From Thermoanaerobaculia bacterium (GTDB lineage: Bacteria > Acidobacteriota > Thermoanaerobaculia > UBA5066), in NCBI GenBank assembly GCA_963719225.1, contig CAVRAY010000001.1, positions 1,984,001 through 2,048,000 of the forward strand: DNA of 64,000 bases. Direction: 5' to 3'. The position numbers and the translations under genes are program-made. The notes below the pieces were generated by a model that ran no database searches, was not told where the DNA came from, and saw nothing but the letters and a program-made list of their open reading frames with translations. The first letter of the stretch is position 1. The number at the start of each line of letters is the position of its first letter. This document shows, piece by piece, positions 2,032 to 57,662 of this stretch.

Positions 2032-2909
2032 GCCGTCCTCTTCCCGTTCGCGGAACGCCCGCCCTGCCCGTCTGGATTCGCGAAAAGAAGCTGCGGCTCG
2101 CCGACCTCCACGAAATGAAGGCGCGGATGCGGCGCGGGAGCCTCTCGACGGTCTGCGAGGAGGCCCGCTGTCCGAATCGTACCGAGTGCTTCGAGAGGAA
2201 GACGGCCACGTTTCTCATCGCGGGCGACGTCTGTACGCGTGCCTGCGGCTTCTGCCACATCACGTCCGGCCGGCCCGCGCCCCTGGATCCCGACGAGTCC
2301 GTACGCCTCGTCCGCGCCGCCAACGAGATGGGGATCCGGCACATCGTGGTGACCTCCGTGGATCGCGACGACCTCCCCGACGGCGGCTCGGCGCATTGGG
2401 CGGCAGTCGTCTGGGCGCTGAAGCAGGACGACGCCGCCCGGACGGTCGAGGTCCTGACGCCGGACTTCCAGGGAGCCGCGGACGCGATCGACCGTGTCGC
2501 CGATTCCGGTCCGGACGTCTACAACCACAACGTCGAGACCGTTCCGCGTCTCTACGACACGGTCCGGCCGAAATCTCAGTTCCGCCGCTCGGTTGATCTT
2601 CTCGCGAGGGTGAAGGCGCGCCATCCCGCGATGACGACGAAATCCGGCCTCATGCTCGGCCTCGGGGAGAGAGACGAGGAGGTCGTGGAGCTCTTTCGCG
2701 CACTGCGCGGCGCCGGCGTCGACGTGGTCACGGTGGGGCAGTACCTCAGGCCCTCCGCGTGGAACCTCCCGGTCGTGGAGTACGCGACGCCGGAGCGCTT
2801 CGCGGGGCTCGAGGCGCGGGGGATGGAGATGGGCTTTGCAGCCGTGTTCTCCGGCCCCTTCGTCCGCTCGAGCTACCGGGCGGAAGAGTTCGCGCCGAAG
2901 AGAGATTGA
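2028..2909 (+). CDS. lipA: Lipoyl synthase
   Basis: TVCEEARCPNRTEC, CTRACGFC, RSSY motifs. Confidence 0.97.
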   Translation: MSRPLPVRGTPALPVWIREKKLRLADLHEMKARMRRGSLSTVCEEARCPNRTECFERKTATFLIAGDVCTRACGFCHITSGRPAPLDPDESVRLVRAANEMGIRHIVVTSVDRDDLPDGGSAHWAAVVWALKQDDAARTVEVLTPDFQGAADAIDRVADSGPDVYNHNVETVPRLYDTVRPKSQFRRSVDLLARVKARHPAMTTKSGLMLGLGERDEEVVELFRALRGAGVDVVTVGQYLRPSAWNLPVVEYATPERFAGLEARGMEMGFAAVFSGPFVRSSYRAEEFAPKRD

Positions 2910-3053
2910 TCTTGCTTAGGACCCGAGCGTCTGGCGACGGAGGGCGCGCGGAGACAGGTTCCCGCCTGTTCCGGGGACGTGGCCCGATTTCTTCGATGGA
3001 GGATGTTGCAGTTCGCGTGTGCGCCGCCGGGCGCCACGCGGCTCGGCCGCCGC

Positions 3054-4607
3054 ATGTTGCCTCTCTTACCTTCTAAGAAAATCTCCCGTCTTTTCTTCTC
3101 TCTCGCTTCCGGCGTCCTTCTGGCCCTCTGTTTCCCGAATTTCTCGATTCTTCCTCTTCTCCCCGTCGCGCTGATTCCGCTGCTCGCCGCGCTCGATGGC
3201 GCGCGGCCTCGAAACGCCGCGGTCCTCGGCTACGCCTTCGGGCTCGCCTTCTGGATCGTCACGATTCCCTGGATCGCGTACACGGTGCACCGATTCGGAG
3301 GCGTGCCGTGGGTCGTGGCGGGACTCGCGCTCGTGCTCGCCGCGGCCATCTGCGCGGTCCCGATGGCCGTCCTGGGGCTTCTGTACGCGTGGGCGGCGCC
3401 CCGCACCGCCGCCGGCGTCGTGGCGACGTTCGCCGCGGCGTGGGTCGTCCAGGAGTTCTTTCGCACGACCGTCTGGATCTTCGGCGGTTTTCCGTGGGCT
3501 CTCCTCGCGAACCCGCTCGCCGACGTCCCGCAGCTCCTCGGCACGGCCGCTCTCGGCGGCGTTCTCCTGTCGTCGTTTCTCGTGGCCTCCTTGAACGCCG
3601 CGCTGTACGTCGCGCTCACGAGACCCGCCCGGAATCTGCGGCTGGCGTGGCTCGCCGGCGCGGCGCTCGCCGCCGTGATCGCGGGGGCGGCCAGGCCCGG
3701 CCGCCCGGCGGCTCCAGTCGAGTTCCTGAGGGTGGGCGTCGTTCAGCCGAACGTCCCGCAGGACCTCCGCTGGGAGGCCGGCACCGCGGAACGGCTGCTC
3801 GCCGATCTGGAGGACCAGACGCGCGGCCTCTGTCACCACGGGCGGCCGGCCCTCGTGCTGTGGCCCGAGAGCGCCGCTCCCTATTCGTGGTCTTTCACAC
3901 CGGCTTTCCGCGAGCGGGTCGTCGCGCTTTGTCGAGAGCTCGACATCGCGATCCTCTTGAGCACCGTGTGGTCGGACGCGCCGGACGACCCGGGCGCCCC
4001 GTTCTACAACGCCGCTCTCCTCGTGACGAAGGACGGACCCGTGACGCCGCCCTATTTCAAGCAGCGGCTCGTGCCCTTCGGCGAGTACGTCCCGATGGCC
4101 GGCCTCCTCCGGAGGATCAGGCCCATCAGCCGCGCGGTGCCTTCGGCGTTCACACCCGGCGCCGGACCGGCTCTCCTGAGGCTCGGCACCTGGAGGCTCG
4201 GCGGCGCCGTGTGCTACGAGGTCGTCTACCCGTGGATCGCGCGGGAAGAGACGCGGGCGGGGGCCGACGTCCTCTTCACGCTCACGAACGATGCGTGGTA
4301 CGGCCGGGCCGGCGCTCAGCGGCAGCACTGGCAGTCGGCCGTCGTGCGCGCGATCGAGACGGGGCGCCCCCTCGTGCGCGCCGCGATCACGGGAATCAGC
4401 GGAGCCGTGGACGGAAGCGGGCGCGTTCTCGTCACCCTCGGCCCCGACACGAAAGGCGCTTTCGCGGTGCCGCTCGAGCGGCGCGCCGCGCCTGCGCCCG
4501 CGGCCGCCGCAGGCGACGCGGCGGCCTGGGTTTGCACGGCGGGGCTGGTGGCCGGTATTCTCCGTGCGCGGCTTCTCAAGCCCCGAGAGCCCGCGGCGGC
4601 CGGCTGA
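3054..4607 (+). CDS. lnt: Apolipoprotein N-acyltransferase
   Basis: GGFPW, VQPNV, WPESA, KQRLVPFGEYVP, VCYE, TNDAWYG motifs; start codon uncertain. Confidence 0.95.
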   Translation: MLPLLPSKKISRLFFSLASGVLLALCFPNFSILPLLPVALIPLLAALDGARPRNAAVLGYAFGLAFWIVTIPWIAYTVHRFGGVPWVVAGLALVLAAAICAVPMAVLGLLYAWAAPRTAAGVVATFAAAWVVQEFFRTTVWIFGGFPWALLANPLADVPQLLGTAALGGVLLSSFLVASLNAALYVALTRPARNLRLAWLAGAALAAVIAGAARPGRPAAPVEFLRVGVVQPNVPQDLRWEAGTAERLLADLEDQTRGLCHHGRPALVLWPESAAPYSWSFTPAFRERVVALCRELDIAILLSTVWSDAPDDPGAPFYNAALLVTKDGPVTPPYFKQRLVPFGEYVPMAGLLRRIRPISRAVPSAFTPGAGPALLRLGTWRLGGAVCYEVVYPWIAREETRAGADVLFTLTNDAWYGRAGAQRQHWQSAVVRAIETGRPLVRAAITGISGAVDGSGRVLVTLGPDTKGAFAVPLERRAAPAPAAAAGDAAAWVCTAGLVAGILRARLLKPREPAAAG

Positions 4608-4652: not shown

Positions 4653-5802
4653 GTGAACGAAGAACGCATTGAGCGCCTGCTCGAACTCGCGTCGTCCGTG
4701 AGCGCCCTCCGGGGCTATCTTTGACGTCCGCAAGGCGGCGAAAGAGAAGGAAGAGCTCGAGCGGAAGACCGGCGAGCCCGGCTTCTGGACGAACGCTCTC
4801 GAGGCGCAGGAGACGCTGCGCAAGCTGAAGCGCGCCGAGCGCGTCCTGGACGACGACAAGGACCTCAAGGAACGACAGGACGAGCTCGAGATCCTCGCGG
4901 AGTTCCTGCGCTCGGGCGAAAAGGTGGAGTCGGACGCCGACCAGGCGCTCGCCACGATCGGCCCCTGGGCGCGCCACAAGGAGCTCACCTTCAAGCTCAC
5001 GCACGACGAGGATCCGCTGCCGGCGATCGTCGAGATCCACGCGGGCGCGGGCGGGACGGAGGCGCAGGACTGGGCGGAGATGCTCATGCGCATGTATCTC
5101 CGGTACGGGGAGCGGCGGGGATGGAAGACGGACGTCCTCGAGGCGACGTACGCCGAGGACGCGGGCATCAAGACCGCGACGCTGCGCTTCGAGGGGGAGT
5201 ACGCGTACGGACACATGAAGGCCGAGCGCGGCGTGCACCGGCTCGTGCGCATCTCGCCGTTCGACGCCGCGGCACGGCGCCACACGTCTTTCGCCGCGGT
5301 CTACGTCTCGCCGGAGATCGACGACACGATCCAGGTCGAGATCGGCGACAAGGACCTGAGGATCGACACCTTCCGGGCCGGCGGCAAGGGCGGACAGCAC
5401 GTCAACAAGACGGAGTCGGCGATCCGCATCACGCACCTGCCGTCGGGGCTCGTCGTGCAATGCCAGAACGAGCGTTCCCAGCACAAGAACAAGGACGCGG
5501 CGATGAAGGTCCTGAGGTCGCGTCTCTACCAGCGCGCCCTCGAAGAGCGCCAGGCGAAGGACGCCGAGCGCGCCGGCACGAAGATGGAGATCGGGTTCGG
5601 ATCGCAGATCCGTTCGTACGTTCTCGCGCCCTACAGGCTCATCAAGGACCACCGCACGAACTTCGAGGTCGGAGACGTGGACCGGGTGCTCGACGGGGAC
5701 CTCGACGGCTTCATCGAGGCGTATCTCCAGACTTTCGTGAAGAGAGGCGAGAAGGCCGCCACCGAGCGGCAGGGGTTCGGCGCGCCCGACGCGGCTCCAT
5801 GA
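4653..5802 (+). CDS. prfB: Peptide chain release factor 2, programmed +1 frameshift: join(4653..4721,4723..5802)
   Basis: GTG 4653 opens a 23-codon frame ending GGGGC-TAT-CTT-TGA-C; the +1 frame continues into RF2 with SPF and GGQ motifs. Confidence 0.97.
4711..4725 (+). promoter_or_regulatory. prfB +1 frameshift site (SD-like GGGG plus CTT TGA C)
   Basis: Sequence ggggctatctttgac matches the conserved RF2 autoregulatory shift site. Confidence 0.95.
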
Positions 5803-6428
5803 CGGATACGGACGGCGCGTACAGCCCCTGGATGGAAGAGCTGAGGACGCGTCTCGGCCGGGGCTTTGCTCCGCGGGCCCGCACTTCCGAGAGGGAAGAC
5901 GAATCCCGTCCGCTTCGTCAGGCGGCGGTGCTGATTCCGCTCTACGTGCGGGGGAAGGGCCTGTGGACGCTCTTCACGAAGCGGACGGACATGGTCGAGC
6001 ACCACAAGGGCCAGATCTCGTTCCCGGGGGGCGGGAAATCCGACCGGGACGCGAATCTCTGGGAGACGGCGACCCGCGAGACGGAGGAGGAGATCGGCGT
6101 CCCGCGCGCGAGCGTCCGCATCCTCGGCGTCCTGCCGAAGCTCGAGACCGTCACCGACTTCGAGGTCTCGCCGTTCGTCGGCGCGATTCCCTATCCGATC
6201 GACTTCGCGCCGCGCGCGGGCGAGGTGGAATCCATCATCGAGGTTCCCATGTCGTACCTCCTCGATCCGATGGTCGTCGAAGAGCGTGCCGTGAAGTGGA
6301 AGGGCCGGGACGTCAAGACGCTCGTCTACCACTACCGCGGCCATGCGATCTGGGGCGCGACCGCCCGCATCCTCGCGGACCTGCTGGCCGCGATGCGGGA
6401 CGAAGGCGGCCTCGTTTCACCGGGGTGA
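5799..6428 (+). CDS. CoA pyrophosphatase, Nudix (NudL-like)
   Basis: AAVLIPL, HKGQISFPGG, RETEEEIG Nudix box, IWGATA. Confidence 0.92.
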   Translation: MTDTDGAYSPWMEELRTRLGRGFAPRARTSEREDESRPLRQAAVLIPLYVRGKGLWTLFTKRTDMVEHHKGQISFPGGGKSDRDANLWETATRETEEEIGVPRASVRILGVLPKLETVTDFEVSPFVGAIPYPIDFAPRAGEVESIIEVPMSYLLDPMVVEERAVKWKGRDVKTLVYHYRGHAIWGATARILADLLAAMRDEGGLVSPG

Positions 6429-21166: not shown

Positions 21167-22102
21167 ATGGCCCGAGTGAGTTCGGGATCTCCTGCCAAAG
21201 CGCCGGCCGGCGTCTTCTTTCAAAGGCACCTCCCGCTCTTCCTCGACTATCTCTCGGCGGAGAAAGGTCTCGCCCCGAACACGTTGGAGGCCTATCGCCG
21301 TGACCTTGCTGGATTTGGCCGGTTTCTCGCCTCGTCGCGCACGAATCCCGCGGGCGTCACCCGGCGGGACATCGTCGCGTTTCTCGGCGCGCGGCGCGCG
21401 GACGGCATGTCACCGCGGACGCTGGCGCGGGTGACTTCGGCCCTGCGGGGCCTCTACGGGTTCCTGGCGGCGGAGAAGGTCCTCGAGGCCGACCCCACGG
21501 CCGACCTCACGAATGCCCGCCGGTGGGCGATGCTTCCGAAGGTGCTGTCGCCCGAGGACGTGACGCGCCTTCTCGACGCGCCCGACGTCGCGACGCCGAG
21601 GGGCCTGCGAAACCGCGCTCTTTTCGAGCTGCTCTATGCGTGCGGCCTGCGCGTCTCCGAGCTCGCGGAGCTCCCCGTCGAGGCGCTCCGTCTCCCCGAG
21701 GGGTTTCTCGTCGTCCGCGGAAAAGGCTCGAAAGAGCGCGTCGTGCCGATCGCCGACTCGTCCGCCCGCTGGGTCGCGCGCTACCTCGAAGCGCTTCGGG
21801 CCGAAAAACCGGGCGCGGCGACGAGATGGGTCTTCCCCGGCGGACGCGGAAAGCCGATCACCCGGCAGACGGTCTTTCTCGCTCTGAAAGCCGCCGCGCG
21901 AAAAGCCGGCCTGCCGGCGGCCTCGGTGTCCCCGCACGTCCTGAGGCATGCGTTCGCGACGCATCTGGTGGATAATGACGCCGACCTGCGCGCCGTGCAG
22001 ATGATGCTCGGCCATGCGGACATCGCGACGACCGAGATCTACACGCATGTGTCCCGCTCCCGTGTCCGGAAGGTCTACGACCGGACGCACCCGCGGGCAT
22101 GA
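21167..22102 (+). CDS. xerD: Site-specific tyrosine recombinase XerD
   Basis: LLYACGLRVSEL, GKGSKERVVP, SPHVLRHAFATHL, DLRAVQMMLGHADIATTEIYTHV, HPRA C-terminus. Confidence 0.93.
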   Translation: MARVSSGSPAKAPAGVFFQRHLPLFLDYLSAEKGLAPNTLEAYRRDLAGFGRFLASSRTNPAGVTRRDIVAFLGARRADGMSPRTLARVTSALRGLYGFLAAEKVLEADPTADLTNARRWAMLPKVLSPEDVTRLLDAPDVATPRGLRNRALFELLYACGLRVSELAELPVEALRLPEGFLVVRGKGSKERVVPIADSSARWVARYLEALRAEKPGAATRWVFPGGRGKPITRQTVFLALKAAARKAGLPAASVSPHVLRHAFATHLVDNDADLRAVQMMLGHADIATTEIYTHVSRSRVRKVYDRTHPRA

Positions 22103-51118: not shown

Positions 51119-53416
51119 CTAGGTCCTCACTCCGAGCAGGCCCCACGCCGCACCGAGGCCGAAGAAAACGTTCGGAGCCCAGGCCGCGAGGAACGGCGGG
51201 ATCGCCCCCTGCTGCCCGAAGGAGACGAGGAGCGCGGACAGGAAGAGGTACGTGAGGCCGAGGAAGAGCGCGACGCCGACTCCGGCCACGGCGCCGCGCT
51301 TGCCGTACGTGAACGCGAAGGGGAGTCCGATGAGTGTCAGGAGAAGGGCGGACGCGGCCGCCGCGGTCTTCTGGTGGAGACCCGTCGCGAGCGCGGCCGT
51401 GTCGGCGCCGACCTTGCGACGCACGTCGATGAACCGGGACAGTTCGCGAAACGTCATCTGACGCGGGTCCGCACGCCCCGCTGCGAAGCCCGCCGCGGCC
51501 TCTGGAGCTTCGATGAAGAAGGGACCGTCGCGCCGGATGGCCAGCGAGTTGTCCGGCGAGAACGTCCGGATCCAGCCGCGTTCCGCGAGAAGGCCTCTCC
51601 CGGGCGCGAGGCGCGCGAGGGCTGCGTCCTGGCGCGAGACGAGCTTCCAGGTCGCCGGGTCGATTTGAAGCACGGTGACGCCGCTCGCGACGAGCGACAC
51701 GGGGTCGTACGCATCCGCCGCGAGAAAGCGGCCGCCGTCGCCTCGGAACCAGGACCCGCTTGCGCCGCTGACCGGCGGCTTCTGGCCTTTGAGCAGGAAG
51801 CGAATCCGGTCGGACTCGGACGCGGCCGCCGGAACGACACGCTCGGCGAACACGAAAAGCCCTGCTCCCGCGGCGACGGCGAGGACGAGGAGGGGGGCCG
51901 TGATCCGATGAAGGGAAACGCCGTGCGCCAGGAGCGCGGTCGTCTCGGAGGAGCGCACGAGGCTCGCGACCGTCACGAGCGCCGCCACGAGAAACGCGAA
52001 CGGCACGATGTCCAGAATGATCGGCGGGAGAAATGCCTGGTAGTAACGGAGGATGAGCGCGGTCGGAGACCGGTGCCGCGCGATGTCGTCGGAGATCTCG
52101 AGGTAATCGATCAGGACGTAAAGCGTTGCGATCGATACGACGACGAGAGCGAAGATTCCGAGAAACCGCCGGGCGACGTACCGGTCGATGAGGAGAATTC
52201 CCCTGAGGGAAGCGCGCCGCCCTTGGACGCTCGGGACGTCGAGAGAGGGCTGACCCGGGGCGGCGGCGATGGCCGAAACGGCGGGAGCGACCACCGTCGT
52301 GGGAAGCGAGAACACGGCCTTGTCCCGCCGCACGCGTGAGAGCGCGAAAACGCCGAACGCCAGGAGGAGGAGGTTCGGCAGCCACATGGCGAGAGCCGGG
52401 GAGGTGCTTCCCTCGATCGCGCGGGCCTCGCCCGTGGCGAGAAGAGAGTAGTAGAGCAGCACGATCGCGACCGAGACCGCGAACCCTGCAGCCCGCCCGC
52501 CTCGCCGGTTGACGATTCCGAGAGGGAGCCCGATGAGGCCGAAGACGAGGCAGGCCGCGGGCAACGCGAACTTCTTGTGGACCTCGGTGAGCGCGAGCCT
52601 GCGGTCCTCGGGCCGCCGGGTGCTCGCCGCGGCTCGCTCCAGGAGCTCGCGGAGCGTCTGCTCGCGAATCTGTTTCTCCGTCACGCCGCGCGACGGCCCG
52701 TTGTCCTGCAGCACCATGCGGTGACGCGAGAAGGACGTCACGTCGTATCGGCCGCCGGCGTCCTGCACGTGGTGGGTTTCGGCGTCCTCGACGCTCAGCC
52801 AGAGACGACCCTGGTCCTCCTCCAGCTCGAGCCAGCCTCGCTTCGCGAGCGTCAGCCTTTCACCTTCCGGGCTGGAGCGGTCTGAAATGATGAGGCCCGT
52901 GAGCTCCCGGCGATCGGGCGAAGCCCCCTCGGCGTAGACGCGGAGACCGGCGATTTCCGGGCTGAAGACACCTGGTTGGATCCGCTGGGCGAAGGCGAAG
53001 CTCGAGAGGCGGAGCTTCATCCCGTAGAGCAGGTGGTTTGTCCGCGGGACGACACCGAGCATCAGCGCCAGGGTGGCCGCGCCGATGCCCACGGCCAGGA
53101 AGCCGATCGGCCGGTAGAGGGACAGGAGATCGACGCCCGAAGCGCGGAGCGCCGTCAGCTCGAGGTCCGCCGATAGGCGGCCGATCCCGATCAGGAGGCC
53201 GAGGAGGAAGGCGATGGGCAGCGTGAGGACGATGATGTGAGGGAGCGAGAGGGCGACAACCAGCCCGGCCTCGACGAAAGGTTGCTCGCTCTGTACGAGG
53301 AGCTCCGAGAACTGCACGAGCCCCCGGACGGCCATAAACCCCGTGTAGGCGAGGAAGCCCACGATCGTGGGCGCGAGAACCTCCCGGAAGACATAACGGT
53401 CCAGCAGCCGCCGCAC
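51119..53416 (-). CDS. lptFG: Fused LptF/LptG LPS export permease
   Basis: Two tandem YjgP/YjgQ halves (LLDRYVFRE...WLPN; LIDRYVARR...WAPN). Confidence 0.92.
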   Translation of the reverse strand: MRRLLDRYVFREVLAPTIVGFLAYTGFMAVRGLVQFSELLVQSEQPFVEAGLVVALSLPHIIVLTLPIAFLLGLLIGIGRLSADLELTALRASGVDLLSLYRPIGFLAVGIGAATLALMLGVVPRTNHLLYGMKLRLSSFAFAQRIQPGVFSPEIAGLRVYAEGASPDRRELTGLIISDRSSPEGERLTLAKRGWLELEEDQGRLWLSVEDAETHHVQDAGGRYDVTSFSRHRMVLQDNGPSRGVTEKQIREQTLRELLERAAASTRRPEDRRLALTEVHKKFALPAACLVFGLIGLPLGIVNRRGGRAAGFAVSVAIVLLYYSLLATGEARAIEGSTSPALAMWLPNLLLLAFGVFALSRVRRDKAVFSLPTTVVAPAVSAIAAAPGQPSLDVPSVQGRRASLRGILLIDRYVARRFLGIFALVVVSIATLYVLIDYLEISDDIARHRSPTALILRYYQAFLPPIILDIVPFAFLVAALVTVASLVRSSETTALLAHGVSLHRITAPLLVLAVAAGAGLFVFAERVVPAAASESDRIRFLLKGQKPPVSGASGSWFRGDGGRFLAADAYDPVSLVASGVTVLQIDPATWKLVSRQDAALARLAPGRGLLAERGWIRTFSPDNSLAIRRDGPFFIEAPEAAAGFAAGRADPRQMTFRELSRFIDVRRKVGADTAALATGLHQKTAAAASALLLTLIGLPFAFTYGKRGAVAGVGVALFLGLTYLFLSALLVSFGQQGAIPPFLAAWAPNVFFGLGAAWGLLGVRT

Positions 53417-53440
53417 GGAAGAGATGGTAAGGCGAAGGAG

Positions 53441-53458
53441 AAGATTCTCTTAGAAGGG
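53441..53458 (-). repeat. TTCTAAG-core motif, dif-left pair, copy A
   Basis: Reverse complement CCCTTCTAAGAGAATCTT. Confidence 0.85.
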
Positions 53459-53511
53459 AATATGGCGGGCGAGCGCAGTCCGGATGGCGAGCCTGGTGCG
53501 GGCGGCCCAGG

Positions 53512-53527
53512 CACCTTCTAAGGAATC
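53512..53527 (+). repeat. TTCTAAG-core motif, dif-left pair, copy B
   Basis: CACCTTCTAAGGAATC. Confidence 0.85.
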
Positions 53528-53567
53528 CCCGGTGCTCGTTTCGGTCGGATTCCCACGCCAATGTACA

Positions 53568-53595
53568 ACGTCCGATAATATTTATTATGTTAAAT
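53568..53595 (+). other. dif: dif site (XerC/XerD chromosome dimer resolution)
   Basis: ACGTCCGATAA-TATTTA-TTATGTTAAAT: 11-6-11 layout, XerD arm identical to E. coli dif; intergenic AT-rich island at the gene-orientation convergence. Confidence 0.93.
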
Positions 53596-53690
53596 ATTAG
53601 ATGACCCTTGCCTAATGAAATAAGGCGACCCTCGCGGGCCCGCACTTCCCTGCGCACGCCGACAAAAATCGATGCGCAAGACGTGAGGGA

Positions 53691-53707
53691 GTATTTCTTA
53701 GAAGGTG
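53691..53707 (-). repeat. TTCTAAG-core motif, dif-right pair, copy A
   Basis: Reverse complement CACCTTCTAAGAAATAC. Confidence 0.85.
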
Positions 53708-53766
53708 AATGAGTAGGAAGGCTCTGGGGATCTCGCAGAGCGCTTCGGTGTGCGGGGGCTCCACGT

Positions 53767-53784
53767 ACCCTTCTAAGAGATCTT
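53767..53784 (+). repeat. TTCTAAG-core motif, dif-right pair, copy B
   Basis: ACCCTTCTAAGAGATCTT. Confidence 0.85.
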
Positions 53785-53864
53785 TTGCGGCGGTTCAGGA
53801 CGCTCCGGCCGAGCAGCTGGAGTCCAGCCTCGAAGCTGGGAGGGTGTTACTCCGAGAGCAAGAA

Positions 53865-54770
53865 CTATTTCTTCGCCTTGACCGCTTTCGCCTTCACAAA
53901 GCGACCCTGCGTCTCGAGGTCGATATCTCCCGCTTCGATCCGCCGTGCGAGATCGCGGATCGCCTCGAGGATTTCATCCTTCTTGTGGAGGCGGCCCTTG
54001 AGGACGAGGCTCACCTTGTAGCGCTTGTCCTCCGGAGCAAAGTCGAGCGTGTACGCTCTCTTCAGTCCGCCCAGCTTCGAGCTGGTGCCGCGTCGCGCGT
54101 CCTTCTTCACTTCGCGCAGGACGTCGCGGCTCAGCGTGTCGCCGTTCGCCAGCGCCATGACGGCGGCGAGCATGAGGTCTTCGTCCTTCAGTCTTCCAAG
54201 CTCGAGCAGGAACGATCTTGACCCGATGTCGGCACGCCGACATTCGGCCTGAACGCGCTCGGGAAGCCTCGCAATCGACAAGGCTTCCGTGATCGTCACG
54301 CGCGACTTCCCCACGGCATCCGCGATCTGCTCGTGCGTGTAACCGTGGCGCTCCTGTAGAGCCTTGTAGCCGTCCGCTTCCTCGAACGGGCTCAGGTCCT
54401 TGCGCTGGAGATTCTCGACGAGCGCGATCTCGAGCAGCTCGTTGTCGGCAACGTCCATCTCGATGCAGGGAATCTCCGAGAGACCCGCTTCGAGGGACGC
54501 GCGAAAGCGCCTCTCTCCCGAGATGATCGTGAAGCGCCCGTCTCCCCGTGGACGCACGAGAATCGGCTCGAGGACGCCCTTGTCCAGGATGGATTTCGTT
54601 AGGTCGGCGAGGTCGCCCATAGCGCTTCGAGGCTGATCGGGATTTGCCTCGATGAGATGGATCGGGATACGACGACCGACCGGCAGTTCGTCGGCGCGGA
54701 CGAGCTGCTCGACGAAATGCGAGTCGTGGCGCATGCGCGAAGTCTCGGGAAGGCCGCGGCGTTTAGACAC
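53865..54770 (-). CDS. parB: ParB/Spo0J-family CTPase with atypical DNA-binding region
   Basis: NPDQPR, GVLEPILVR, ISGERRFRA, ALVENLQRKDL; HTH 'THEQIADAVGKSRVTITEAL'. Confidence 0.92.
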   Translation of the reverse strand: MSKRRGLPETSRMRHDSHFVEQLVRADELPVGRRIPIHLIEANPDQPRSAMGDLADLTKSILDKGVLEPILVRPRGDGRFTIISGERRFRASLEAGLSEIPCIEMDVADNELLEIALVENLQRKDLSPFEEADGYKALQERHGYTHEQIADAVGKSRVTITEALSIARLPERVQAECRRADIGSRSFLLELGRLKDEDLMLAAVMALANGDTLSRDVLREVKKDARRGTSSKLGGLKRAYTLDFAPEDKRYKVSLVLKGRLHKKDEILEAIRDLARRIEAGDIDLETQGRFVKAKAVKAKK

Positions 54771-55524
54771 GAGAGAGGATCTCCTCCGTCAGGCTGTAGT
54801 ACTCGAGCGCGCCTGACGAGCGCGGAGCGAATGTGAAGATGGATTCCCGATACGCCGGCGATTCCTCCAGCCGGATGGACTTCGAGATCGTCGTCTTGAA
54901 GAGCTTTCCCTTGAAGACCTCGTTGATCTGGCTCTGAATGTCCTTGCCGAGCGTCGTCCGCTTGTCGTGAAGCGTGATCACGACACCCAGGATCTGGAGA
55001 TTCGGATTCGGCCGGCTCTTGATCTTCTCGATCGTCTCGAGGAGATCATCGGTCCCTTCGAGCGCGAAGTACGAAGACTGAATCGGAATCAGGATGTGCG
55101 TCGAGGCGACGAGGGCGTTCACCGTGATCATGCCGAGCGTGGGCGGCGTGTCGATGAGGATCGCGTCGTATTCGCCCGACTCGCGCACGACCTGGAGCTT
55201 GTCCTTCAGCCGGAAGTGCCCGTCGAGTTCGCCGAGGAGCTTCGACTCCACCTTCGCGAGCGAGATGCGCGCAGGCGCGACCGTCAGCTTCGGGAGGCTC
55301 GTCTGCTTGACGATGTCGAAGAACGATACGCTCGGGTCGGTGAGCACGTCGTACATCGACTTTTCCACGTCCTTGCGATCCACGAAAGACATCGTGGAGT
55401 TGCCCTGGGGATCCAGGTCGATGAGCAGCGTCCGGAGACCTTTTTGCGCAAGAGCCGCTGCGAGATTGATCGCGGTGGTGGTCTTCCCCACTCCGCCCTT
55501 CTGATTTGCAACGGTGATGATCAT
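54763..55524 (-). CDS. parA: ParA/Soj-family ATPase
   Basis: NQKGGVGKTTT deviant Walker A, IDLDPQGN, IDTPPTLG. Confidence 0.95.
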   Translation of the reverse strand: MIITVANQKGGVGKTTTAINLAAALAQKGLRTLLIDLDPQGNSTMSFVDRKDVEKSMYDVLTDPSVSFFDIVKQTSLPKLTVAPARISLAKVESKLLGELDGHFRLKDKLQVVRESGEYDAILIDTPPTLGMITVNALVASTHILIPIQSSYFALEGTDDLLETIEKIKSRPNPNLQILGVVITLHDKRTTLGKDIQSQINEVFKGKLFKTTISKSIRLEESPAYRESIFTFAPRSSGALEYYSLTEEILSRV

Positions 55525-55596
55525 GCGCTGGCGACGCGGATGATACGGAGGGGGCGAGGAGGCATCAAGGACGAAAGGTACGTCCCGCCCGGAAAA

Positions 55597-56082
55597 TCAC
55601 ATCCGGTACTTGCCGAGGGTGTCGGGATCGGCTTCCTCGAGCCACTTCTTGAGACGTTCCGCGTTCTGCGCTTCGGCGGTGTCCTCGCCGCTCCGGCTCA
55701 TCTCGAGAACCGACTCCTCCACGAAGACCGGCGCCTGGAGCCGGAGCGCGAGCGCGATCGCATCCGACGGGCGGCTGTCGACGAGGACGTCCTTGTTCGC
55801 GACGCGGAGGTGAATCTGGGCGTAGAACGTGTTTTCCTTGAGGCTGTTGATCACGACGCGCAACACGTTGCCCTCGATCTGGGTGATGAGGTTCTTCAGG
55901 AGGTCGTGCGTCATCGGCCTCGGCGTCGTCACGCCTTCCATTTGAAGAGCGATGGCATTCGCCTCGAAGACCCCGACCCAGATCGGCAGAAAGTTCTTCT
56001 CCTCGGCGTCCCGCAGGATCACGACCGGCATGTTTGCGATCGGATCGACGATGAGCGCTTTCACATCCATTTTGACGCTCAA
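55597..56082 (-). CDS. Bifunctional nuclease family protein (DUF151)
   Basis: LPIWVGVFEANAI, PRPMTHDL, DSRPSDAIALA; RBS AGGAG 8 nt before TTG. Confidence 0.92.
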   Translation of the reverse strand: MSVKMDVKALIVDPIANMPVVILRDAEEKNFLPIWVGVFEANAIALQMEGVTTPRPMTHDLLKNLITQIEGNVLRVVINSLKENTFYAQIHLRVANKDVLVDSRPSDAIALALRLQAPVFVEESVLEMSRSGEDTAEAQNAERLKKWLEEADPDTLGKYRM

Positions 56083-56117
56083 GGTAGTTTCTCCTGGGAC
56101 TCAATCTAGGGAGGAAT

Positions 56118-56126
56118 TGTGGATAA
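56118..56126 (-). promoter_or_regulatory. Perfect DnaA box
   Basis: TGTGGATAA = reverse complement of TTATCCACA; a second variant box TCATTCACA lies at 56143-56151. Confidence 0.6.
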
Positions 56127-56220
56127 AGCAAGGAAGAGCCCTTCATTCACAGGGCATGATTTGCTATTAAGTGCTTTTAATAGAATGAATTAAAAGAGAT
56201 TTTCAGAAGACGGGAAACCG

Positions 56221-56306
56221 AAGACTTCTTAGAAAGTGCCCGTGCCGGAGTCAGCGCCGGTGGCGAGCGTGCTACGGCCGCGCTCGTAGACCCTTCTAAG
56301 AGGATT
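56221..56306. repeat. TTCTAAG-core motif inverted pair upstream of the DUF151-parAB operon
   Basis: CTTAGAA 56228-56234 (contains the miaB stop) and TTCTAAG 56294-56300. Confidence 0.8.
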
Positions 56307-57662
56307 CTCTTCTCCCTCTTCGACCGCTTCTCTTCTTCCGAGCAAAGAATTCGGAAATCCCCGCTCGATCCGCACGTTCACGAGCGTGCCTGGTTTGAGA
56401 TCCGATTCCCCCGCGATGTTGACGACGCGGTTGCAGCGCGATCGGCCGGAGCTGATGCGCCGTCTTCGATCGAGCCCTTCCACGAGCACCTCGAGAACGC
56501 GACCCTCCATCTCGCCGTTCACCTGCCGCTGGATCTCCTGCTGGATCGACATGAGGCGGGCGAGTCGGGCAGACGCCACACGCGGCGTGACGTCGTGCTC
56601 CCAGCGCAGCGCGGCAGTCTGCGGGCGAGGCGAATACGTGAAAGAGAAGACGCCGGCGAACCTCACCTCTTCGAGGAGCGAGAGCGTGGCGGCAAAGTCT
56701 TCGTCCGTCTCGCCGGGGAACCCCACGATCACGTCGGTCGAAAGCGCCAGGTTGGGGATGGCATCGCGAAGAGACGCCGCGAGGTCGAGGTATTCCGCGC
56801 GCGTGTACTGGCGCTTCATGCGGCGCAGCACCGCGTCGGAGCCGGACTGGACCGGCAGGTGCAGCGCGGGAACGACCACGGGCGTCTCGGCCATCGCGGC
56901 TATGAGGCGCGCGGAGAAATTGCGCGGGTGGGACGTCACGAATCGGAGGCGCCGGAGACCCGGCAGAGCGCCGACCGCGCGCAGCAGGTCGGCGAGATCC
57001 TCCCCGGTCTCGGGGTCGCGGAACGCATTCACGGTTTGTCCGAGAAGCTCGATCTCCAGAGCTCCCTCGTCGATCAGGCGACGGGACTCGTCCACGACGT
57101 CGTTGAGTCGCCGATTACGTTCGCGCCCGCGCGTGCGGGGAACGACGCAGAACGTGCAGTTCTTGTTGCAGCCCTCGATGACGGTGATCGCGGCGCGATA
57201 CGGCACCGAGCGTGCGATCGCGCCGGGGGTGTAGACGACCTCGTCCGGATCGAAGCCTGTCTCGCAAGGTCGGTCTTCCTCTTCTTCGACCCGGCGCAGA
57301 ACCGACGGCAGGGCCTCGATGCGTCCCGTACCGAGCACGAAATCGACCTGCGGCAACCGCTCGAGCAGCTTCTCCCCTTCCTGCTGCGCAACACAGCCGC
57401 AGACGCCGAGCACCGTCTCCGGGCGCTCTCGCTTCAGTTTCGCGAGACGCCCGAGACGGTCGTAGACCTTCTGCTCGGCCTTGTCGCGAACGGAGCACGT
57501 GTTCAGGAGGATCACGGCGGCTTCCTCGGGCGACGCGACTTCCGAGAACCCTTCACGCGCGAGGAGCCCGACGAAACGCCTCCCGTCGAGAACGTTCATC
57601 TGGCAGCCCCAGGTCTCGACGAAGACTTTTCGGGCCGCGCGGCGGAAGGTAGGAACGCTCAC
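56229..57662 (-). CDS. miaB: tRNA-2-methylthio-N6-isopentenyladenosine synthase
   Basis: TWGCQMN, NTCSVRDKAEQK, GCNKNCTFC, HLPVQSGS, TRAM domain. Confidence 0.97.
   Translation of the reverse strand: MSVPTFRRAARKVFVETWGCQMNVLDGRRFVGLLAREGFSEVASPEEAAVILLNTCSVRDKAEQKVYDRLGRLAKLKRERPETVLGVCGCVAQQEGEKLLERLPQVDFVLGTGRIEALPSVLRRVEEEEDRPCETGFDPDEVVYTPGAIARSVPYRAAITVIEGCNKNCTFCVVPRTRGRERNRRLNDVVDESRRLIDEGALEIELLGQTVNAFRDPETGEDLADLLRAVGALPGLRRLRFVTSHPRNFSARLIAAMAETPVVVPALHLPVQSGSDAVLRRMKRQYTRAEYLDLAASLRDAIPNLALSTDVIVGFPGETDEDFAATLSLLEEVRFAGVFSFTYSPRPQTAALRWEHDVTPRVASARLARLMSIQQEIQRQVNGEMEGRVLEVLVEGLDRRRRISSGRSRCNRVVNIAGESDLKPGTLVNVRIERGFPNSLLGRREAVEEGEENPLRRVYERGRSTLATGADSGTGTF

Follow-up and report, generated by a model that had tools for sequence, protein, structure and literature searches.

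The stretch analyzed here, hereafter the window, is 64,000 bp of DNA (C1:1,984,001–2,048,000) from a member of the class Thermoanaerobaculia (Acidobacteriota) with a genome of 4.75 Mb in two contigs (C1 and C2). A dif site lies in it between a fused lptF/lptG permease gene (lptFG) and the 3' end of an operon-like run of a bifunctional nuclease (BFN/DUF151) gene, parA2 and parB2, and a MiaB-like gene follows on the far side of the BFN gene (Table 1). The reading frames of parA2 and parB2 overlap by 8 nt and the parB2 stop codon is 270 bp from dif, confirming an earlier note on this DNA, which had placed dif about 270 bp from the 3' end of a DUF151-parA-parB operon. ParABS systems are the textbook segregation machines of origins and plasmids, and parAB2-dif is a ParABS in an unexpected place. 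We consider it probable (roughly 0.6) that BFN-parA2-parB2 and a unique 16-bp palindrome, TGTCGGCACGCCGACA, form a second complete ParABS-type set 0.3–0.6 kb from the sole dif of the genome at the terminus; ParB2 is predicted to load at this palindrome and not at the repeat CCTTCTAAG that surrounds dif, and ParA2 likely positions or separates the terminus around dif.

Exactly two ParB_N matches are present in the genome. Contig C2 carries dnaN-dnaA and rsmG-parA1-parB1, with the genome's sole perfect parS at the start of parA1, and these origin-side genes and parS are 34–44 kb ahead of the C2 skew minimum (~370 kb). Allowing up to two mismatches, the canonical parS, TGTTNCACGTGAAACA, has a single site in the genome, at C2:333827 beside parA1, and none near parA2-parB2. 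The ParAB in the window is a second pair, because the canonical dnaA/rsmG-parA1-parB1 region with the only perfect parS is on the other contig; the separate parAB near dnaA that the earlier note had suggested looking for is thus parA1-parB1.

The parA2-parB2/dif locus is at the replication terminus. Scored against an order-level arm consensus (GTCCGATAA-N6-TTATGTAAAAT, maximum 20, both strands, 9.5 Mb), the window dif reaches 19 of 20 and is the only site in the genome at 17 or above; the next best score 16 and 15, and the background is one site of at least 16 per 9.5 Mb. The cumulative GC skew of C1 climbs to a plateau at 2.00–2.16 Mb and then drops, with dif (2,037,568) on the plateau. Strand-biased 8-mers, picked on DNA distant from the terminus, switch polarity at 1.92–2.085 Mb of C1, and the commonest of them, CGGGGGAG, flips within C1:2,031,832–2,042,565, an interval of 10.7 kb that contains dif, so that skew and oligomers both bear out the terminal location proposed earlier. 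As an XerCD dif it is a single-copy, 28-bp site of 11-6-11 layout on which the oligomers converge, in a genome encoding Xer recombinases and FtsK-gamma: a XerD gene lies in the window 31.5 kb from dif (21167–22102, + strand; TIGR02225 334 bits, cut-off 330), C2 has a further Xer-type gene, and C1 encodes an FtsK that includes the gamma domain. The XerD arm of dif is identical to that of E. coli. Two diverged paralogous ParAB pairs stand at opposite poles of the replication map, one at the origin with the canonical parS and one at the terminus; C1 and C2 appear to be one chromosome, judging by skew and by single-contig relatives. As a side observation, C1:1–200,000 holds 19 of the 25 runs of at least eight G on C1, and the skew of its first 100 kb is very steep; these first 200 kb may be unusual in themselves or may reflect the assembly.

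Table 1 Features at the dif locus, in window positions
Feature	Position	Strand	Remarks
lptF/lptG fused permease gene (lptFG)	51119–53416	−	Pfam LptF_LptG, two stretches; other side of dif
CCTTCTAAG inverted pair 1	53449–53457 (−), 53514–53522 (+)		Not part of the par system
dif	53568–53595	+	XerC-type arm ACGTCCGATAA, 6-bp centre TATTTA, XerD-type arm TTATGTTAAAT
Genus-conserved hairpin GCCTAATGAAATAAGGC, then terminator-like stem	53610–53626, 53627–53640	−	parB2-dif spacer; alignments of 20 genus loci
CCTTCTAAG inverted pair 2	53697–53705 (−), 53769–53777 (+)		Not part of the par system
parB2, 301 aa	53865–54770	−	Pfam ParB_N (GERRFRA, ENLQR) and HTH_ParB; own-type beta-beta-alpha C-terminal domain
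Candidate parS2, palindrome TGTCGGCACGCCGACA within parB2	54227–54242		Encodes C-R-R-A-D; 632 bp from dif
parA2, 253 aa, Walker-type ParA/Soj ATPase	54763–55524	−	Pfam AAA_31/CbiA
Sigma-70-like promoter match TTGATG-17-TATCAT	55540–55568	−	BFN-parA2 spacer; consensus match only
BFN/DUF151 (bifunctional nuclease domain) gene, 161 aa, 5' of parA2	55597–56082	−	Pfam BFN_dom, E 4e-42
MiaB-like radical-SAM methylthiotransferase gene	56229–57662	−	Pfam UPF0004, Radical_SAM and TRAM
CCTTCTAAG inverted pair 3	56229–56237 (CTTAGAAAG, one mismatch), 56292–56300 (+, exact)		Overlaps 3' end of the MiaB-like reading frame

ParA2 is 44% identical to ParA1, with the deviant Walker A motif QKGGVGKTT aligned, and matches Pfam AAA_31 (E 1.6e-56) and CbiA (E 3.5e-28). 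ParB2 is 46% identical to ParB1 in the N-terminal and helix-turn-helix (HTH) parts only, and parA2 is in the same operon as parB2, as in the ParB/Spo0J family. The Pfam matches of ParB2 are PF02195 (ParB_N, E 3.4e-26) and PF17762 (HTH_ParB, E 3.8e-15), and NCBIfam parB_part scores 147 bits, whereas the Noc model TIGR04285, at 144.7 bits, stays below its cut-off of 315. The earlier assignment of this ParB to the CTPase type agrees with its motifs: GERRFRA and ENLQR/ENLHR are invariant in 20 ParB2 orthologues, down to 41% identity. ParB2 may bind and hydrolyse CTP and load as a clamp at the palindrome. The N-terminus of ParB2 carries a conserved basic peptide, KRRGLP...MRHDxHFVE, where ParB1 instead has LGKGLSAL, and its recognition helix reads SR-x-(S/T)-(I/V)-T-E against R-x-T-V-A-N in Thermus, Myxococcus and ParB1. 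An invariant Glu thus occupies the position of the Asn that contacts DNA in ParB and Noc (Caulobacter N178; mapped by offset from the GKSR motif). PMC7383237 names N178 of Caulobacter as a contact to parS that both ParB and Noc conserve. The AlphaFold2 (AF2) model (pLDDT, the predicted local distance difference test score, 82) has a beta-beta-alpha C-terminal domain at residues 240–280, and Foldseek ranks Noc, ParB and Spo0J highest against it. Among solved structures, ParB2 is nearest to Thermus Spo0J (E 7.9e-39), Myxococcus ParB, Caulobacter ParB and Noc. The hhalign alignment with ParB1 is limited to residues 32–218, neither it nor the ESM Atlas assigned the C-terminal domain, and a homologue search with residues 176–301 returned close relatives only, all annotated as generic ParB.

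The candidate site of ParB2 is the palindrome TGTCGGC-NN-GCCGACA. It was found in 47 of 52 loci scanned for palindromes (at most one mismatch per 8-nt half). The window genome has one exact copy, inside parB2, and three one-mismatch palindromes against ~2.6 estimated by chance. On the parB2 coding strand the site reads TGT CGG CGT GCC GAC, for the invariant C-R-R-A-D of the protein. In the 107 loci that carry the motif (32 from the set of 52 and 75 of 80 further records, with some overlap between the sets), the codons TGT, CGG, GCC and GAC are fixed in all 107; the central two bases vary (CGC 103, CGT 2, CGG 2), and so does the next codon (Ile), outside the palindrome (ATC 77, ATT 27, ATA 3). 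Where the palindrome lies outside parB2, the peptide CRRADI decays (VQALGI, CREAGI, CLEAGI, CRQAGI, CRAAKI). Such copies are in the BFN-parA2 spacer at L044, L047 and L051 and 18–640 bp beyond parB2 in some lineages, in G238 at 46 nt from dif. Given frozen codons, peptide decay and out-of-gene copies, it is the DNA and not the peptide alone that is constrained.

Placement of the palindrome was read by hand for the 61 genomes listed: 30 have it inside parB2, 12 about 0.85–0.96 kb upstream (just 5' of parA2), 2 at the parB2 5' end, 9 within 640 bp downstream and 3 at 1.4–5.7 kb, 3 have multi-site clusters and 2 have it on another contig only. In G144 (6.49 Mb, one contig), five exact and two one-mismatch sites span 875.5–1005.0 kb with dif at 928.2 kb, and only two further one-mismatch sites lie outside the dif region; G189 has four palindromes within 53 kb around parB2. 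The exact palindrome occurs in 130 of 175 ParB2-positive genomes and in 1 of 126 ParB2-negative ones, and a reversed-pattern control matched 8 of 301. The palindrome is a candidate parS2, to which ParB2 probably binds.

The arrangement is not peculiar to this genome. We compared relatives from the Acidobacteriota, in the class Thermoanaerobaculia and in other families of the phylum, as 20 genus loci (the window's included), 12 loci from the two other families of the order and 20 from other families of the phylum; the counts include one unpublished genome (G025, locus L030), on which alone no claim depends. The block of miaB-like gene, BFN gene, parA2, parB2, dif and lptFG is kept in 20/20 genus and 12/12 order loci. 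A dif with at most two mismatches is directly 3' of parB2 in 20/20 genus loci, and a dif with an arm score of 18–20 out of 20 lies between parB2 and lptFG in 12/12 order loci; in the other families a site of at least 16 is within ~1.8 kb of parB2 in 15/20, mostly within 250 bp. The parAB-dif synteny across Acidobacteriota for which the earlier note had proposed a check is thus widespread. Outside the genus, a tblastn search of five window proteins against the 32 loci, with Pfam confirmation, recovered ParA2 adjacent to parB2 in 32/32, BFN next to parA2 in 31/32, MiaB-like in 28/32 and LptFG in 25/32, and dif is still beside parB2 at L040, L042 and L047, where lptFG has been replaced. Among 301 genomes at least 90% complete, 175 are ParB2-positive (full-length match, E <1e-55) and the other 126 have ParB1-level matches or none; ParB2 identities fall gradually from 95% to ~43%. 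The distance from dnaA to parB2 is 0.47–0.55 of the chromosome in 10 of 11 assemblies (G109 0.53, G128 0.48, G144 0.47, G276 0.50, G333 ~0.50, G028 0.50, G082 0.55, G040 0.51, G033 0.49, G027 ~0.49).

The orientation of dif relative to parB2 is opposite in seven of the order loci (L022–L033) and the same in five. Several order loci have an additional XerD-arm-like half site 30–60 nt from dif. At L050 (G297:C1:1,497,983–1,506,789), a XerC/D-type recombinase gene (2389–3270) adjoins parB2, with no recognisable dif at that locus and with the palindrome upstream of the BFN gene.

If ParB2 and ParA2 work as their families do, a mechanism can be sketched. Dimers of ParB2 would load at the palindrome, close with CTP, slide and cover dif 632 bp away, and the distinct N-terminal peptide of ParB2 would activate ParA2 only. 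A gradient of ParA2 on the nucleoid would keep the single-copy terminus at mid-nucleoid; after replication of the terminus, ParA2 would separate the sister termini, easing the action of FtsK/XerCD at dif. The roles suggested in the earlier note, terminus positioning and licensing of XerCD/FtsK, are likewise hypothetical. A broader version, to which we give somewhat less than even odds, is that Acidobacteriota run a dedicated chromosome-end partition machine, in which ParB2-CTP clamps from a ter centromere (TGTCGGC-NN-GCCGACA) would coat dif and ParA2 would hold it at mid-cell, then part the sister termini and hand dif to FtsK/XerCD, filling a MatP-type role. The layout is kept across much of the phylum, and it is likely that these bacteria actively position the chromosome end. 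If true, this would be the first ParABS known to serve the terminus, not an origin or a plasmid. How the terminus is placed and separated is understood for only a handful of model bacteria, through MatP in enterobacteria and ZapT in Caulobacter. An orthogonal ParABS that a major phylum of soil bacteria conserves next to dif is a directly testable candidate for active terminus handling, for which both the protein pair and the 16-bp site are defined. The arrangement would also be a natural example of two insulated ParABS on one replicon, and the new ParB/parS specificity pair could serve as an orthogonal DNA-labelling tool.

Compared with canonical ParABS (Thermus Spo0J, 1vz0; Caulobacter ParB, 6t1f; Myxococcus ParB, 7bnk), the terminal set has the same kind of parts: a Walker ParA of Type-Ib size, a ParB whose ParB_N CTPase domain (GERRxRA, ENLQR) is joined to an HTH, and a 16-bp palindrome of the form TGT...ACA that lies in or near the par genes, with multi-site clusters in several lineages. 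It differs in standing at the terminus beside dif and coexisting with an origin system, in the inner half-site of the palindrome (CGGC instead of TTCAC), in the Thr-Glu instead of Ala-Asn of the recognition helix, in the own-type N-terminal peptide and C-terminal domain of ParB2 and in the linked BFN/DUF151 gene. In Bacillota, Noc with its binding sites (NBS) is another paralogue of ParB whose DNA specificity has changed and which is present alongside the origin ParB, and in structure and sequence ParB2 resembles Noc about as much as it resembles ParB. No ParA is dedicated to Noc, and the Noc sites are dispersed and avoid the terminus, whereas ParAB2 has one site or a small cluster at ter. MatP-matS of enterobacteria and ZapT of Caulobacter share with ParB2, whose binding is predicted, sequence-specific binding at sites confined to the terminus around dif, but they belong to unrelated protein families and lack both an NTPase clamp and a ParA motor. 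The ~23 MatP sites are spread over 800 kb, whereas there are one to seven ParB2 palindromes within ~130 kb or less. With respect to XerCD/dif systems, the window dif is itself ordinary and its fixed parAB2 neighbour is the novelty. ZapT is a terminus organiser in Caulobacter according to PMC7188993, and chromosome 2 of Vibrio cholerae has ParAB2-parS2 according to PMC3688505. Such second ParABS of multipartite genomes likewise amount to two orthogonal ParABS with different parS per cell, but they serve a second replicon at its origin; here both are on one chromosome, at opposite poles. The full-text literature covered (open sources, with subscription journals outside coverage), including the accessible portions of the ParB review PMC7022226 and of PMC7383237, contained no description of a ter- or dif-linked ParABS.

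Several observations weigh against a second ParABS set acting on the terminus. The C-terminal 60 residues of ParB2 have no match to ParB_C (PF23552), although ParB1 has one. The exact palindrome is missing in 45 of the 175 ParB2-positive genomes, no variant palindromes were found near parB2 at L034, L036, L037, L042 and L046, which are without the exact site, and in family f5 the lone palindrome is 41–51 kb from parB2. Co-occurrence of ParB2 and palindrome is largely automatic, because the site is inside parB2 in many lineages; the independent evidence of association is the intergenic cases, the multi-copy cases and the frozen synonymous sites. Five of the 20 loci from other families have no dif within 4 kb of parB2, and all five are also without lptFG there; a degenerate dif pattern search of these five genomes gave nothing convincing. 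In G019, a congener represented by a 3.9-Mb metagenome-assembled genome (MAG) of three contigs, only 732 kb separate dnaA from parB2, both of them on a single contig of 2.42 Mb, and CGGGGGAG polarity flips at dif and then again at dnaA; the interval G019:C2:90,001–890,000 contains both polarity-switch sites, dif and dnaA (L134–L173). Either the replichores of G019 are very unequal or its assembly is mis-joined. The sampled genomes are kin and mostly MAGs, and the join of the two contigs in the window genome is inferred from skew. A search of sequencing runs listed no RNA run for this DNA, and the DNA runs that contain it do so with small shares only. Finally, because the whole block, including the miaB-like gene and lptFG, is syntenic, inheritance of the ancestral order may account for some of the adjacency to dif.

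Taken further, that last point becomes an alternative in which ParB2 has a local role only, as a KorB-like autoregulator or silencer of the operon that encodes it, or belongs to a relic partition pair, with dif a neighbour in an ancestral block left unbroken. We regard this as unlikely, even though it accommodates synteny of the entire block, beyond parB2-dif, across the phylum, the confinement of the only palindrome of the genus to the operon itself, the operator-like position of the palindrome just 5' of parA2 near a promoter-like site in many lineages, and the absence of lptFG from the five dif-less loci. Gene order at phylum depth is seldom kept without selection, however, and dif stays with parB2 on replacement of lptFG (L047, L040, L042); an operator leaves unexplained the 4–7 sites over 50–130 kb centred on dif in several lineages, and 32/32 loci retain a full ParA partner together with the CTPase motifs. 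It is rather improbable that ParB2 marks the terminus without ParA transport, in the manner of Noc or MatP (division-site control, or a tether to divisome or membrane) or by loading SMC (structural maintenance of chromosomes) at the terminus: a dedicated ParA2 is always co-encoded, the Noc model gives 145 bits against a cut-off of 315, and the N-terminus of ParB2 is basic and ParA-peptide-like, with no hydrophobic amphipathic helix evident by eye. What speaks for such a marker is that ParB2 is equally close to Noc and ParB in fold and sequence, that the palindromes are confined to the dif region and that the C-terminal domain is of its own type. The site dif is also where XerCD-dependent elements integrate, and the module could in principle have entered there as the partition part of a mobile element that integrated (IMEX or plasmid) or of a secondary replicon that became fused, in keeping with the second dif-arm-like half sites near dif in some relatives and the XerC/D-type gene beside parB2 at L050. 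This is very improbable given that no second full dif brackets the module in the window genome, the flanks are housekeeping genes, no replication initiator is beside the module, and 175/301 sampled genomes across the phylum have it at this position, their ParB2 identity declining gradually.

The earlier note had assigned ParB loading to the inverted CCTTCTAAG pairs that bracket dif, a proposal that is now barely credible. The repeats themselves are as conspicuous as described, with an inverted pair on each side of dif; of the third pair, upstream of the operon, the + copy is exact and its partner is CTTAGAAAG, with one mismatch. Eight exact copies are in the window against 0.11 expected, and five of them are no more than 3 kb from dif; only one other place in the genome matches the dif spacer in having at least four exact copies in 500 bp, and the core of the motif, TTCT-N-AGAA, is a small palindrome. 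But the genome holds 207 dispersed copies (~13 expected), of which a crude gene caller based on GC content at third codon positions (GC3) places 130 between genes. The 12-mer CCTTCTAAGAAA has 21–210 copies in 25/25 genus genomes and none in 16/16 genomes of two sister families, which retain ParB2 and dif. Of the 20 genus loci, three have the left pair in their dif spacer, six have the right pair there and four are without any copy. The sequences enclosed by the pairs that were inspected are unrelated to one another. CCTTCTAAG is a genus-specific dispersed repeat, and because it is genus-restricted, dispersed and variable at the dif locus it is not the partner of the phylum-wide ParB2, which another palindrome tracks. 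The repeats around dif are a separate matter from the par system.

The extended consensus of the repeat is ccctcttCA-CCTTCTAAG-AAAatcttctcttc. Inverted pairs within 200 nt number 23 and fold as hairpins with z-scores of −1.8 to −5.1 (pair 2: −3.4 and −5.1 on the two strands), and no Rfam family accounts for them. A promoter role was considered and rejected, the copies showing no orientation preference to downstream gene starts (63 vs 67), no −35 element in their profile and no fixed distance to start codons; among solo intergenic copies, 73 of 104 have a divergent gene start on the 5' side. A repetitive extragenic palindromic element with its associated tyrosine transposase (REP/RAYT) was likewise rejected, as this genome of 97% completeness gave no match to the Y1 transposase (PF01797). 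The other spot with four copies is at C1:2,546,278. In the half of the chromosome centred on the terminus, the density of the repeat is ~3–5 times higher, with 161 copies at 0.8–3.2 Mb of C1 (~67/Mb) against ~24/Mb in the rest of C1 and ~13/Mb on C2. Three copies within 8 kb (C1:2,301,434, 2,304,013 and 2,309,313) have near-identical flanks, which suggests a small paralogous gene family bearing the motif.

Some smaller features of the locus remain. The MiaB-like open reading frame is 477 aa long, with TRAM ending at residue 443; it crosses repeat pair 3 and stops inside it, and the pair seems to have lengthened the frame. No known RNA family reached the Rfam gathering threshold in the window, and the matches at the locus itself were weak and at chance level. 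The hairpin word GCCTnAAnnnnTnAGGC, ~15 nt beyond the dif XerD arm, is conserved among the 20 genus loci and not in other families, and the terminator-like stem adjoins this hairpin on the minus strand (window 53610–53640). Matches to TTGAC-N17-TAnAAT are present in the BFN-parA2 spacer of relatives too, and that of G141 (L037, ~5602–5928) is full of tandem caggaGTCAGGAAACAGGA-like repeats in both orientations.

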